A DNA stretch of 64,000 bases from positions 128,001 to 192,000 of the forward strand of contig CAVSHR010000004.1 of the NCBI GenBank assembly GCA_963727625.1. The letters run 5' to 3'. Position numbers and translations under genes: made by a program. The notes under the pieces were generated by a model, which made no database searches, was not told the origin of the DNA, and was given only the letters and a program-made list of their open reading frames with translations. Within the stretch, counting starts at the first letter, position 1. The number at the start of each line of letters is the position of its first letter. The DNA comes from an uncultured delta proteobacterium (lineage in GTDB: Bacteria > Desulfobacterota > Binatia > UBA9968). This document shows positions 37,444 to 42,212 of this stretch, in pieces.

Positions 37444-38045
37444 GCTGATTTAGCGGTGTGGCCTGGACCTTGGGCGCGGGGATTCTGGCCGGCGTTCGTA
37501 GCTCATCGGATCAAGAAAAATTTCTCCCTTCGTCAGACTGAGTAAGAGCACTAAATCGAGGTTTTAGTACGGATGAGGAAAGGAGATCAAGGATTTAGTT
37601 CACGAGCGATCGGGAGTGGAGCAGAGGTCAAAATCAACTCGGCGATTTTCAAACCACGCGAGCAGCTTTTCGACGCCGGCCTACAAGTTCAAGCGGATAC
37701 TGAACCTCAGCTGGAGGTCAAAGGCTTGATTGCCGCACTCTATGAGCGGCCTAGCCGCCTATTTGCGGGGGATCTGGTCCATGCAGCGAAGCTTAAATGG
37801 CAAAAGGGCCGAAGACCGAGGTCGCCCTCATGTTTCGCGCAATTCAGACAAATTTTGCTCCTCATTGCAGGACGATAGCCAGAGTTTTCACGCAGTCGGA
37901 CACTCGAAATGACAACTTAGGGGTCTGTCGTCCCGAACCAAAAGAGCGATCTAGCCGAAACTGAGCCATTACCGGTGCCGACGGCTTTTCTGGCTGCTCT
38001 CGATTTGCTAGATTACGAATAGAAATTTCAGTTATGTGAGGGCCT

Positions 38046-38537: not shown

Positions 38538-39560
38538 ATGGAGTATGAATCAGTGAAAATCAAATCCTGCGCGATATTAATGAGTCGCTTAATGGTGTGC
38601 GCGTTGTTTTTCGCCTTGGTCTCAACCTCGTTCGCTCAGGAAAAGAAAAATATTCGGATGGTCTTCGTCAGCCTCGCCTGGAACAGCGAGATCCCGTTCC
38701 GGGTTGCGAAGGTACGCGGGTTCTTCAAGCAGCAAGGGCTCCAGGTCGAGCCTATTTTGATCCGTGGTGGACCGGCCGCGATCGCTGCGCTCGTTTCCGG
38801 CCAAGTCGACTTCGCGGCCATCGGCGGGGCGCAGGCGGTGTTCCGCAGTCGGGCGCGCGGCCTGGAATTGTCGATCATCGGCTGTACCTCGAGCACGACG
38901 AATTACATTCTGCTCGGCGACAAGCAGACGCGAACGGTGGAAGAGCTCAAGGGAAAGACGATCGGGGTTACGGGAGCGGGCACTTACTCCGAATTCGCCG
39001 TAAGGACCTTTCTGAAGAAACACAACATCAACCCGGATAAGGACGTGGTTTTGCGTGCCATCGGTGGCACGGTGTTACGCGCGGCGGCGATGGAGAAGGG
39101 GCTCATCGCGGCGGCGCCGTTTTCCACCGAGGACGGCGTGCGGCTCATCAAAGCAGGCTATTCGGTAATCAGCAACATGAGCGAGTCCTTGGGCATTCCG
39201 CAGAATATCTTGGTGACACGCAGCGAAGTTTTGGAAAAATATCCCGAGAGTACAAAGCGAATGCTCAAAGCGTATATTCAAGGGATCAACCTCGCCAAGT
39301 TCAACAAGAAGGAAGCGATCAAAGCGGGCTACGAATCGGGCTTGAAGGGAGATCCTGAGATCGTCAGCGCGGCCTGGGATCTCTACTCGCCGGGACTGAC
39401 GTCGGATCTGTCCATCGCGACGGCCGGACTGCAGCAGATGCTCGACGAGGACATTCGCACGGGTTTGGTGGATAAGTCTTTTACCCTCGACCGAGTGGTC
39501 AACGACCGGATTCTCAAGATCGCGCAGCAGGAGCTCAGAGCCGAAGGCCGGATCAAGTAA
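38538..39560 (+). CDS. ABC transporter substrate-binding protein (NitT/TauT, SsuA/THI5-like)
   Basis: Signal peptide; GFFKQQGLQVEPI, AALVSGQVDF and ELKGKTIGV. Confidence 0.9.
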   Translation: MEYESVKIKSCAILMSRLMVCALFFALVSTSFAQEKKNIRMVFVSLAWNSEIPFRVAKVRGFFKQQGLQVEPILIRGGPAAIAALVSGQVDFAAIGGAQAVFRSRARGLELSIIGCTSSTTNYILLGDKQTRTVEELKGKTIGVTGAGTYSEFAVRTFLKKHNINPDKDVVLRAIGGTVLRAAAMEKGLIAAAPFSTEDGVRLIKAGYSVISNMSESLGIPQNILVTRSEVLEKYPESTKRMLKAYIQGINLAKFNKKEAIKAGYESGLKGDPEIVSAAWDLYSPGLTSDLSIATAGLQQMLDEDIRTGLVDKSFTLDRVVNDRILKIAQQELRAEGRIK

Positions 39561-39562
39561 GC

Positions 39563-39991
39563 ATGACGGTCAATCAAACGGAGACTGAGGCAACGCCGGA
39601 AGTCGCGTTGCGACAGGTGAGTACGGAACCCGATCGAGTAAAGCGGTTTTGGAGCATTGCTTGGGTTGTCGAGAACAAAGGGGCCCATACACTGGAAATT
39701 TTCGCCGTGCGTTTACCGCACGGCCAGTTCAAGTCGGAGGAACATCGGTTCGAGCCCGCGCTGAAGCTGGCAGCAGGACAAAGCGATGAGTTTAAGACCC
39801 TGGTGCGGTGCGACGAGCCAGCCGGACTCGTCACTGAAAATGCTTTCGTCATTTTTTCAGTAATCTGGTCAGAGCAGGCGTGGCGCATCTTCGTGCGGAT
39901 TCGCGTCGTGGTCAATTCTGAAGGCGAGCCTGTGACGGTGACCGAATCGGTCACGACTCAGATGGCCGGATTCTCGGGCGTGACAGCGTAG
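39563..39991 (+). CDS. Hypothetical protein (beta-rich, possibly Ig-like)
   Basis: Starts 2 nt after the SBP stop; 142 aa with alternating hydrophobic strands. Confidence 0.7.
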   Translation: MTVNQTETEATPEVALRQVSTEPDRVKRFWSIAWVVENKGAHTLEIFAVRLPHGQFKSEEHRFEPALKLAAGQSDEFKTLVRCDEPAGLVTENAFVIFSVIWSEQAWRIFVRIRVVVNSEGEPVTVTESVTTQMAGFSGVTA

Positions 39992-40017
39992 AGTGAACGC
40001 TTTCGAGGAATACTGAA

Positions 40018-40239
40018 GTGGCCGATAAAGAAAAAGATCTTTACATCCTCAAGCGCATGCGCGGTTGACACAGCAACTGAGGCCTCGGCTTCGAAGAGAC
40101 CACGGGGATGGTCTCCAACACGGTCAAGATGGATCAGAAAAAAGTGGTCGCCGCGCTCAAGCGTCTAAAGGCGAACCATAACGATGATCCGGAATATAAA
40201 AAGCTGCGTAAAGACTTGCCGAAAGAGTGGCCGATTTAA
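40018..40239 (+). CDS. Candidate 73-aa protein with two in-frame UGA codons (GUHSNUG), a putative double selenoprotein
   Basis: GAGGA RBS 8 nt before GTG. Reads MADKEKDLYILKRMRG-U-HSN-U-GLGFEETTGMVSNTVKMDQKKVVAALKRLKANHNDDPEYKKLRKDLPKEWPI-TAA with UGAs at 40066 and 40078; a hairpin follows. Confidence 0.65.
40096..40115 (+). promoter_or_regulatory. Candidate bacterial SECIS element
   Basis: Perfect 7-bp stem GAGACCA/TGGTCTC with loop CGGGGA. The spacer to the loop is 22 nt from the second UGA and 34 nt from the first. Confidence 0.55.
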
Positions 40240-40244
40240 ATTAA

Positions 40245-40326
40245 CGTCTAGCGTCTAGAGTTTAGGGGTCTAGGGTTGCAAATCGAATGCCGAAGATACC
40301 CGGCACTAAACCCCAGGCTTCCAAAC
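40245..40326. repeat. 7-mer tandem repeats (NGTYTAG) with a degenerate inverted copy between convergent genes
   Basis: CGTCTAG CGTCTAG AGTTTAG G GGTCTAG ... CTAAACC CCAGGCT TCCAAAC. Confidence 0.5.
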
Positions 40327-41082
40327 TTATCTACGCAACTTGACCGTCGGCTGGCGCAGATTCAGATCCTTCACACCGCCCCAGAACTCCCGTTTGCCGG
40401 TCATCGCCTGCACGTGGCCGTCCCATTCCAGGGTGAACGCGGTCAAACCGAGCTTCACCGCGGCGCGGACCTTGTTTTGCGTTGCTTCGTCGGTCGCCAA
40501 TTGCCTGATCGCGTCGATTTGGCGGCTGCCGTGGCCTTCGTCTTGGGCCGCGTGAAGCTTGTAGGTCTCGGCAGCGCGCGGCGTAAAGCCGTAGTGGCCG
40601 GTGAGCTCGCGATAGACCTTTTCGGAGATTTTTCCGGCGCCGCCGAGCTGGCTTTCGACGAAGGCGAGCATGGCGACGCCTTCGAGGGCGGAGCGGCGCT
40701 GGCAGCAGCCGATGATCATTTCGATGGCCGCGAGCGTTCCCGGCGCCGGTTCGGCGTTGTCCGCTTCGACGCGAGAAATGCCGCCTTCTTCGAGAAACTG
40801 GAGCATAATGTCCATGTGCGTGCGTTTGCCGCCGAGCTCTTCCATAAAATTTTCCAGCACCGTGTCCATTACGGTGTATTCCTTAGCCGACACGGCGTTC
40901 ACCGCCATGTAGCCGAAGAAGATCGGATTGGTGCGCACGCGCAGATAATGCTGCACTTCGCCGAGAATGATTTGCTCGCGCGTCCAGCAGTGCTTGATGA
41001 TGCCGTCGAACCAGGGATGCTGCTCCATCGGCACCTCCGCCGCGTCCCTCCAAAGCTGATCGATAAATTCATCGGGTGACAT
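40327..41082 (-). CDS. PqqC/CADD-like heme-oxygenase-like diiron oxidase
   Basis: HPW, ENFMEELGGKRTH, ES and LHAAQDEGH metal-ligand pattern. Confidence 0.8.
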   Translation of the reverse strand: MSPDEFIDQLWRDAAEVPMEQHPWFDGIIKHCWTREQIILGEVQHYLRVRTNPIFFGYMAVNAVSAKEYTVMDTVLENFMEELGGKRTHMDIMLQFLEEGGISRVEADNAEPAPGTLAAIEMIIGCCQRRSALEGVAMLAFVESQLGGAGKISEKVYRELTGHYGFTPRAAETYKLHAAQDEGHGSRQIDAIRQLATDEATQNKVRAAVKLGLTAFTLEWDGHVQAMTGKREFWGGVKDLNLRQPTVKLRR

Positions 41083-41327
41083 GAGCTACCGTCTAGCGCA
41101 AGCAACCGATAATGTCCATCGGACAGGTGCGCCGTTTGTCATTTCACCCTGCGACCGGGGCTCTTTGTTAAGCGAGGAAAGCGCTTGACCGGCGCGTAGA
41201 GCCAATTTATGAAGCATAGTTGACGGCTGAGCGGGCAAATTGCCCGGTCTGTGTTGCGGTTATCGCGGCTGATCTGCCATGCCCGCCAAGGCGTCTCGCA
41301 ATTTATCAAAAGAAAAAAAGAGTAGCG

Positions 41328-42212
41328 ATGATTGACTCTAAGCTCAGCCTGAACGATGGTCGGCAAATTCCGCAACTTGGCCTGGGTGTGTGGCGAATTC
41401 CCGCCGGCAAGAAATGCGAAGGGGCCGTGCTCACGGCTTTCGACGCCGGTTATCGCCATATCGACACGGCGTCCTTTTACGGCAACGAGGAAAGCGTCGG
41501 CGCCGCGGTCCGGGCGAGCGGTATCCGCCGGGAGGAAATTTTCATAACCACGAAATTGTGGAACAGCGATCACTCGAGCCCTGAGCGCGCTCTTGAAGCG
41601 AGCCTGCGCAAGCTCAAGTTGGAGTATGTCGACCTCTACTTGATCCACTATCCGGTGCCGCAGCGCCTGCGCAGCTGGCACGCCTTCGAAAAATTGCAAC
41701 AGCAGGGCAAGATACGCTCGATCGGCGTCAGCAATTTCACCATAAGACATTTGACTGAGCTGCTCGCTGAGACGGAGACCGTGCCTGCCGTCAATCAAGT
41801 CGAATTTCACCCCTATTTGTATCAGCGAGAGCTATTGGATTACTGCGTTGCCCGAGGGATCGTCGTCGAGGCCTACTGTCCGTTGACCCAGGGAGAGCGG
41901 TTGAATGAGCGGAAGCTAATTGCCGTCGCCAGGAAATACCCTCAAGGTTCGGCACAGCCTACCCGCCGTCGCACGAAGTTTCCCTTTATGCCCGGTGCCT
42001 CCCGCAACGATGAAACCAAGTCGCCGGCGCAAATCCTGATTCGCTGGGGGCTGCAGCATAATCTGGTCGTCATCCCGAAGTCGGCCAATCCCACCCGCAT
42101 CCGCGAGAACGCGGATGTTTTTGATTTTGAAATCAGCGACGAAGATATGAAGACTTTGGATGGTTTTAATGAAAACCTGCGCACCTGCTGGGACTCGACC
42201 CATGCGCCGTGA
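41328..42212 (+). CDS. Aldo/keto reductase (DkgA-like)
   Basis: GLGVW, GYRHIDTASFY, TTKLW, DLYLIH, IGVSNF and IPKS. Confidence 0.93.
   Translation: MIDSKLSLNDGRQIPQLGLGVWRIPAGKKCEGAVLTAFDAGYRHIDTASFYGNEESVGAAVRASGIRREEIFITTKLWNSDHSSPERALEASLRKLKLEYVDLYLIHYPVPQRLRSWHAFEKLQQQGKIRSIGVSNFTIRHLTELLAETETVPAVNQVEFHPYLYQRELLDYCVARGIVVEAYCPLTQGERLNERKLIAVARKYPQGSAQPTRRRTKFPFMPGASRNDETKSPAQILIRWGLQHNLVVIPKSANPTRIRENADVFDFEISDEDMKTLDGFNENLRTCWDSTHAP

Follow-up and report, generated by a model that had tools for sequence, protein, structure and literature searches.

In the SelB system of Escherichia coli fdhF, the selenocysteine (Sec, U) insertion sequence (SECIS) is a hairpin inside the coding sequence (CDS), just 3' of the UGA codon and with a small apical loop that contains G. 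Two Sec residues can also share a single motif, as in the eukaryotic protein SelL, which has a UxxU diselenide motif. Table 1 of a 2026 review, which lists 119 selenoprotein families, includes double-Sec families of the UxxU and UxxxxU types; the predicted bacterial ones are the metal-binding protein NF041115 (UxxU), an FmdB-family regulator (UxxU), a Prx-like protein (UxxU), and TsoB (UxxxxU) (PMC13188914). Here, we analyze a gene at positions 40018-40239 of a 64,000-nucleotide (nt) stretch of DNA, referred to below as the window, from an uncultured delta proteobacterium (GTDB lineage Bacteria; Desulfobacterota; Binatia; UBA9968; GenBank assembly GCA_963727625.1, contig CAVSHR010000004.1, positions 128,001 to 192,000 of the forward strand). 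We conclude with considerable confidence that it encodes a 73-residue, four-helix protein with two UGA codons that are most likely read as Sec through SelB and tRNA-Sec, and that it belongs to a family of which we found no description.

The protein is like NF041115, the FmdB-family regulator, the Prx-like protein, and TsoB in that two Sec residues lie in one short motif, that homologues carry pairs of Cys, and that it was found by computation only. It differs from them in showing no sequence or hidden Markov model similarity, in its x3 spacing, in being a predicted four-helix bundle rather than a thioredoxin (Trx)-like protein, in its genomic context next to an oxidase resembling the Chlamydia protein CADD, and in having two adjacent conserved hairpins, the first of which holds the second UGA. 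With SelL it shares two Sec in one redox-type motif and has no homology. The closest parallels for the decoding itself are fdhF and the selD gene of the same lineage, which likewise have a hairpin within the CDS on the 3' side of the UGA in genomes that contain selA, selB, and selC. The window gene departs from both in having UGAs only 12 nt apart, with hairpins at offsets of +12 and +30 from the first UGA and +18 from the second, and in having SelB sites that are putative.

The frame opens with a GTG codon, 8 nt downstream from a Shine-Dalgarno (SD)-like GAGGA (40005..40009, + strand), and its 73 sense codons continue in one frame, with no frameshift, to a TAA stop at 40237-40239 (CDS 40018..40239, + strand). 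It contains two TGA codons: UGA1, codon 17 (40066..40068, +), and UGA2, codon 21 (40078..40080, +), which we read as Sec17 and Sec21. These features can be read directly from the letters, and the translation is as claimed in an earlier sequence-only reading, which had proposed a candidate double-Sec protein at this place. Under translation table 11, the locus yields only a 43-residue open reading frame (ORF) from ATG 40108, and public gene calls, too, mostly give a 43- or 51-residue hypothetical protein (most of 215 matches).

Homologues were sought by a six-frame search in which stops were read through. The gene occurs in 31 of 41 genomes of relatives, where 31 of the 32 match rows have exactly two TGAs and the remaining row is a contig-end fragment, and in 100 of 123 genomes of the organism's order, where two TGAs are present in 102 of 104 rows and the other two rows are fragments. 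Both counts include four unpublished genomes (G005, G476, G479, and G493; loci L016 and L042 are from G005), all of which have a match to the small protein; without them the order count becomes 96 of 119 and the conclusions are unchanged. An even draw of the phylum gave the gene in one of 401 genomes, that of the window itself (G000), and in none outside the order among those searched. Public genome contigs had TGA at both sites in 76 of 77 parsed loci, the other being L179 with TGC/TGA (3 of 80 loci were not parsed). A second public scan gave 45 of 46, the other being L304 with TGT/TGT (1 of 47 not parsed), and a metagenome scan gave 79 of 80 loci (1 not parsed), with at least 459 confirmed relatives. 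Record titles mostly name Candidatus Binatia (or "delta proteobacterium") and Chloroflexota, including Dehalococcoidia, Limnocylindria, and SAR202; other taxon labels, found on short contigs, may be binning errors. Among 157 distinct sequences, codon 17 is TGA in 156 and codon 21 in all 157. The recurrence of the same two in-frame TGAs is more than chance.

Evidence that the segment upstream of the TGAs is translated comes from the homologues. In 30 of 31 related loci, translation could begin 14-16 codons ahead of the first TGA, at an ATG (28 loci) or GTG (2 loci) that is accompanied by an SD-like motif; GGAG, GAGG, or AAGGA precedes the start in most of the 31, and the sole locus without a full-length start is L037. 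Homologues do not, then, begin at the internal ATG 40108, an outcome that the sequence-only reading had named as one that would count against it. The N termini vary in length by whole codons. Over the 157 distinct sequences, G16 is conserved in 100% and N20 in 99%, and at codons 7-16 the residues are kept with the use of several synonymous codons (entropy 0.8-2.0 bits), so that the N-terminal codons show conserved residues together with synonymous variation. Met31 is invariant among homologues, and the consensus around the Sec pair is G-U-x-x-N-U-G. The expected pattern of TGA or Cys at positions 17 and 21, with conservation on both sides, was thus found in the order as well as in public loci. 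Amino-acid conservation on both sides of the TGAs and between them argues that the upstream segment is coding, and 40018-40239 is a real, conserved, and mis-annotated gene.

Cys counterparts of both Sec residues exist. The bacterial examples are L179, with TGC at codon 17 and TGA at codon 21, and L304, with TGT at both, which is the only bacterial Cys/Cys locus. When 1.84 billion representatives were searched with a profile, most matches were truncated calls of 43 residues, and the others included full-length proteins of 60-133 residues in which a C-x3-C motif aligns to U17 and U21. The C-x3-C genes are mainly from Thermoplasmata and a few other archaeal metagenome-assembled genomes (MAGs), and the archaeal Cys homologues are single ORFs of 71-73 residues. 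Across Sec and Cys forms, F25, T28, M31, L47, R64, P68, and P72 are invariant and the Cys/Sec positions nearly so. As a separate observation, the proteins predicted from L179:2512-2583 and L322:3528-3599, which come from different MAGs, are identical except at codon 17 (TGC vs TGA); both loci keep the two hairpins described below, and the pair represents a direct exchange of Cys and Sec at the first site.

Trp or unrelated residues at the UGA positions would have spoken against Sec, and the few database proteins of this kind can be explained. Three of them (P0001-3) have W at both sites; because they come from ~1-kb contigs of the JGI and no TGG was present at either site in any parsed locus of the three public scans, they are probably gene calls made under a TGA=Trp table. 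In two others (P0010 and P0133), "CAVDGAIE" replaces "MRGURRNU"; this is the exact +1 frame of the relatives' Sec segment with frame 0 on both sides, and therefore reflects two compensating one-base insertions or deletions in homopolymer runs. These may be sequencing errors, or real variants in a lineage that has lost both Sec codons. The +1-frame comparison of the two proteins is tied to locus L146:4037-4108.

The genome of the window's organism (6.6 Mb) contains all four genes of the Sec machinery that the sequence-only reading had listed for checking: selA (527 bits), selB (76 bits for the SelB winged-helix domain), selC (tRNA-Sec, 76.7 bits, above the gathering score), and selD. The last has one in-frame TGA of its own, as it does in 39 of 41 genomes of the order, and selA, selB, and this Sec-selD form a cluster outside the window (contig C5:715340-719466). 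One in-frame TGA each is also present in 15 of 25 AhpC-TSA (Prx-like) matches and in 5 of 13 CMD (AhpD-like) matches in this genome, and because of these 15 and 5 matches we conclude that the organism has a large selenoproteome. Formate dehydrogenase alpha (TIGR01553) gave no match with a TGA, and thus no SECIS comparison, and a search for Rdx/SelW-like proteins gave no match. In this genome, more open frames of at least 500 codons end in TGA (377 of 906) than in either of the other stops, and TGA also terminates the small gene itself in 34 of 79 metagenome loci; it is therefore not reassigned. Of the features by which a bacterial selenoprotein is recognized, four are found here: a conserved in-frame UGA, aligned Cys, a 3' stem-loop, and selA, selB, selC, and selD.

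RNAalifold, applied to 30 distinct sequences, found two adjacent hairpins. The first, H1 (40078..40093, +; UGAGGC, loop CUCG, GCUUCG), has 6 bp and a 4-nt loop, starts at +12 from the U of UGA1, and includes UGA2 as its first three bases. The second, H2 (40096..40115, +; GAGACCA, loop CGGGGA, UGGUCUC), has 7 bp and a 6-nt loop and starts at +30 from UGA1 and +18 from UGA2, with its loop 34 and 22 nt away from them, respectively. H2 is the hairpin with a CGGGGA loop that the sequence-only reading had described at these distances; it is real and conserved, and the second conserved hairpin, H1, had been overlooked. In 138 distinct sequences, 99.9% of cells are paired in H2 and 99.8% in H1 (96.7% when Chloroflexota-type sequences are added), and standard pairs fill 99.8% of pair cells, as against 30-53% for slid registers. 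A shuffle control on the 138 sequences is uninformative because all changes are one-sided. With 36 Chloroflexota-type sequences added, the apical pair of H1 is found as C-G (62), G-C (4), and U-A (3), which amounts to 7 double-sided changes (none of 500 shuffles had as many), with 17 unpaired cells; residues 22-24 vary widely in the Chloroflexota-type sequences, and the other five H1 pairs hold.

The covariation check that had been suggested for H2 is uninformative because H2 is invariant, and the evidence for RNA-level constraint comes instead from synonymous sites, which are frozen over the stems. Entropy among synonymous codons is 0-0.17 bits at codons 22, 24, 25, 27, 28, 29, and 32, all of which lie in the H1 and H2 stems, and codons 27, 28, 29, and 32 use a single codon wherever the consensus residue is kept (157 distinct sequences). 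The equally conserved residues G16, L47, R49, Y60, R64, L67, and P68 have synonymous entropies of 0.8-2.4 bits. Intermediate values of 0.5-1.0 bits occur at the H1 loop (codon 23), the unpaired linker base (codon 26), the fifth base of the H2 loop (codon 30), and the base right after H2 (codon 33). In L304, the Cys/Cys locus, three of the six H1 pairs are lost (one case only), and codon 32 is GTT, this being the only sequence seen that keeps Val there without using GTC.

A survey of 20 other UGA sites in the same genome gave a hairpin at 19, of which 17 start at +12 to +20; the loops include GUU, GGC, GGU, GGUC, and AGUU, as well as one CGGGA at +17, and +12 is the commonest offset class. The selD hairpin covaries (A-U to G-C and U-A to C-G), starts at +30/31 from its UGA, and has a GUN loop at +36. 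The selD UGA is itself embedded in a mini-hairpin, GAGC-N6-GCUC (loci L001, L002, and L263 and the window's genome). Set beside these sites, H2 would be an ordinary, typical SECIS for UGA2 because it starts at +18 and its loop is CGGGNA in 138 of 138 sequences. For UGA1, either H1 at +12 or H2 at +30, as in selD, fits by spacing. A small apical loop with G is present in H2 and, for H1, in only part of the sequences. By energy alone, the folding of a 76-nt stretch does not stand out (z = -0.60), and a permissive Rfam search of 39900-40350 returned only two rows at chance level (E 3.3 and 9.4). A mini-hairpin around UGA1 (GCUG-ACA-CAGC) was considered and rejected, with 85.7% of cells paired and covariation not above that of shuffles.

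An AlphaFold2 model in which U was entered as C has four helices (residues 3-21, 25-35, 40-54, and 58-65; pLDDT 87.4, pTM 0.69), in agreement with the small helical protein anticipated by the sequence-only reading. At the end of helix 1 of this model, a single helical turn separates U17 from U21; their side chains would therefore point in the same direction, which could allow diselenide formation or metal chelation. For the small protein, Foldseek returned no match at E <= 0.001. In a VIA search, the top row is a designed protein, and the best natural matches are helix-turn-helix (HTH) domains (SorC, sigma region 4, DeoR, and MntR) with Z 5.5-6.3, a weak resemblance that the tool's own note describes as common for small helical bundles. 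The ESM Atlas has no match of at least 0.8 for the Cys form.

The protein could not be assigned to a known family, as had been surmised. The Sec form has no Pfam match at E <= 0.01 and no NCBIfam match at E <= 1, and the Cys forms have none in either collection above any curated cut-off. Neither a U-x3-U family nor any family resembling this one appears among the 119 entries of Table 1 (PMC13188914), and the passages picked out by term in four further papers describe no such family (PMC12013277, PMC1976440, PMC2398784, and PMC13326102). Full-text literature searches returned nothing relevant on selenoproteins in Binatia, on UxxxU, or on selenocysteine with heme oxygenase-like or diiron proteins. 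We thus have what appears to be a new family of small double-Sec proteins, in the sense that we found it described nowhere; unnamed "hypothetical" entries for it in BSepDB, deep-Sep, or the GOS supplementary lists are possible. Taken together, these results support the double-selenocysteine interpretation of the sequence-only reading, and none of the three outcomes that it had named as refuting, namely homologues starting at ATG 40108, Trp or unrelated residues at the UGA positions, and a genome without selABC, held.

On its 3' side, the Sec gene is convergent with a gene for a 251-residue, CADD-like heme-oxygenase-like di-metal oxidase (40327..41082, - strand), with matches to Pfam Haem_oxygenas_2 (1.7e-16) and TENA_THI-4 (8.9e-9). 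The closest solved relatives of this oxidase, and not of the small protein, are Chlamydia CADD / 4-aminobenzoate (pABA) synthase structures (PDB 1rcw and 8va9). Residues 6-202 of the oxidase align to CADD with E ~1e-10, and the E, H, E, H, D, H ligand positions are kept, as is a Lys at CADD Lys152. It differs from CADD in having Phe aligned to Tyr27 and in scoring 58.4 bits against TIGR04305, the NCBIfam model for CADD, where the cut-off is 200. We take CADD Tyr27 to be the sacrificial residue, and we assume likewise the role of Lys152 and the numbering of the six ligands. The sequence thus points to a heme-oxygenase-like di-metal oxidase, and membership in CADD proper is not supported. We know of no small partner protein for CADD.

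The oxidase gene lies beside the Sec gene in 30 of 31 related loci and in 70 of 77 and 41 of 46 public loci, and identity among the oxidases of the Binatia and Chloroflexota loci is 60-92%, which makes the oxidase better conserved than the small protein. Of the genomes of the order, the four unpublished ones included, 97 carry both genes, 21 carry neither, 3 the small gene only, and 2 the oxidase only; because the two genes adjoin, their joint absence stems in part from the incompleteness of MAGs. Complete or near-complete genomes without both genes (e.g., G026, G027, and G030) keep Sec-selD. Three genomes (G005, G473, and G492) have two full-length copies of the small gene each, and in G473 an oxidase gene is found near each of the two.

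In archaea, ~20 nt separate the Cys form from a downstream gene for a 298-residue TENA/heme-oxygenase-like protein that has an N-terminal zf-C2H2_9 domain and is near-identical to PDB 4lqx (E = 1e-90), and the operon continues with a gene for a Cys-rich protein of the Ta0938 family after the C-x3-C and TENA/heme-oxygenase-like genes. By clustering, this arrangement is present in 55 of 59 loci (L044-L102; e.g., L047:5001-6432), the Pfam assignments being from one locus. Between the bacterial and the archaeal oxidase, BLASTP aligns no more than a 50-residue segment (E 1e-4), and tblastn of the bacterial oxidase and of up142, the protein encoded upstream of the Sec gene, against the archaeal loci found neither.

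How the TGAs are read can be weighed on this evidence. If both were true stops, the region would consist of a 16-codon leader and a separate 43-residue protein from ATG 40108, and the hairpins would have a part in regulation or in translational coupling, a view with which the 43- or 51-residue products of public gene calls and the invariance of Met31 agree. We consider it very improbable in the face of the one-frame conservation across and between the TGAs (G16, N20, and the synonymous variation at codons 7-16), the whole-codon differences in N-terminal length, and the Cys codons that take the place of the TGAs in L179, L304, and the archaeal single ORFs. Harder still to credit is the insertion of some other amino acid, whether through a reassigned code (Trp or Gly) or through SECIS-independent near-cognate suppression: TGA is the commonest stop of long frames and ends this gene in many loci, the replacements seen are Cys codons and never TGG in a parsed locus, and the Sec machinery is complete, so that what speaks for it is the W at both sites of three database proteins. 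On the reading that we favor, both UGAs would be decoded as Sec by the organism's SelB and tRNA-Sec under the direction of RNA structure inside the CDS, with H2 as the SECIS for UGA2 and H1 as a second SECIS-like hairpin for UGA1 that holds UGA2 in its stem. A separate, pre-loaded SelB complex would be waiting at each UGA, and the ribosome would melt H1 on its way to UGA2. We regard such a tandem arrangement as evenly poised between right and wrong, and prefer it to a single shared hairpin because, on kinetic grounds, a lone hairpin would have to release one SelB complex and bind another within three codons. H1 also sits at the commonest offset class of this genome, and G is among the first two bases of its loop in 34 of 36 Chloroflexota-type sequences. 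In the 138 mainly Binatia-type sequences, however, G is there in only 32, and the loop is CUCG in 87, without the G-rich start of other SECIS loops. This would suit an arrangement in which SelB is recruited to H2 only, for UGA1 and UGA2 alike, and H1 acts as a collapsible spacer rather than a SelB site; with H1 folded, the distance from UGA1 to H2 would be roughly that from UGA2 to H2 later on, the offset of +30 is that of the covariation-supported selD hairpin, and +18 is within the common range. Such sharing of H2 is a serious contender, if somewhat improbable. The decoding architecture is unusual and amenable to experiment.

As to function, the small protein would work with the neighboring CADD-like oxidase. 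We tentatively suggest that it is a diselenol/dithiol redox or metal-handling partner of that enzyme, because it is linked to the heme-oxygenase-like superfamily in two domains of life, and gene linkage is the only source of this suggestion. The protein might instead bind DNA as a small HTH regulator of the oxidase gene, using its diselenol/dithiol pair to sense metal or redox state, with no direct part in the enzyme's work. We think this unlikely: the HTH domains are its best natural fold matches, yet their Z of 5.5-6.3 is common for small helical bundles, Foldseek found nothing at its threshold, and no HTH family was recognized by sequence. Returning to a partner of the oxidase and to tandem hairpins, the two ideas can be joined: the small protein would then be the first partner of a heme-oxygenase-like di-metal oxidase to depend on selenium, and its decoding would follow a scheme not described before, in which tandem SECIS serve two UGAs 12 nt apart and UGA2 is held in H1 until the ribosome melts that hairpin. 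In such a combination, the U-x3-U mini-protein would deliver electrons or metal to an oxidase without the sacrificial Tyr, or would be its substrate. We offer the combination as speculation whose parts are unlikely all to be right. Several points weigh against the interpretation put forward here. With regard to the RNA, the invariance of H2 means that it does not covary, only one pair in H1 does, the scarcity of G in the Binatia-type H1 loop is unlike the other SECIS loops of this genome, and the survey of 20 sites used a best-simple-hairpin heuristic of our own that is validated by covariation only for selD. With regard to the counts, the locus sets overlap and many genomes are related MAGs, so that the counts are not independent, and the loci were partly collected by patterns that fix some columns, for which a looser protein-level anchor gave the same result. 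With regard to the partner role, gene order is the whole of the argument, the oxidase gene in bacteria runs toward the Sec gene on the opposite strand and is not co-transcribed with it, and L304, the sole bacterial Cys/Cys locus, has no oxidase gene within 4 kb.

A selenoprotein that is widespread in soil Binatia and Chloroflexota is absent from selenoproteome counts because public annotation holds only a 43- or 51-residue hypothetical protein in its place. The gene offers a compact natural test case for the limit on the distance between SECIS and UGA and for the question of whether one hairpin can serve two codons. The link to an oxidase in both bacteria (Sec, CADD-like) and archaea (Cys, TENA-like) points to a possible unrecognized small partner for this class of enzyme.

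Upstream of the Sec gene, and ending 26 nt before it, is up142 (39563..39991, +), which encodes a 142-residue protein of no family. It is adjacent in 30 of 31 related loci and was found in 75 of 77 and 45 of 46 public loci. Its model (pLDDT 92.1) has ApaG as the best fold match (Z 9.8, rmsd 3.1 over 108 residues), and the ESM Atlas gives unnamed clusters only, plus a 0.80 lead to DUF1573; up142 is thus predicted to be a generic ApaG-like beta sandwich and provides no functional lead. It is preceded by a gene for an SsuA/NMT1-like substrate-binding protein (38538-39560, +), which has tblastn matches in 16 of 31 related loci, on the same strand upstream of up142, and none in many distant loci. 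Two further open frames in the window, 37573-37878 (+; 101 aa) and 41139-41810 (-; 223 aa), have no family match; the latter, which overlaps an aldo-keto reductase gene of the opposite strand, is unlikely to be a gene.

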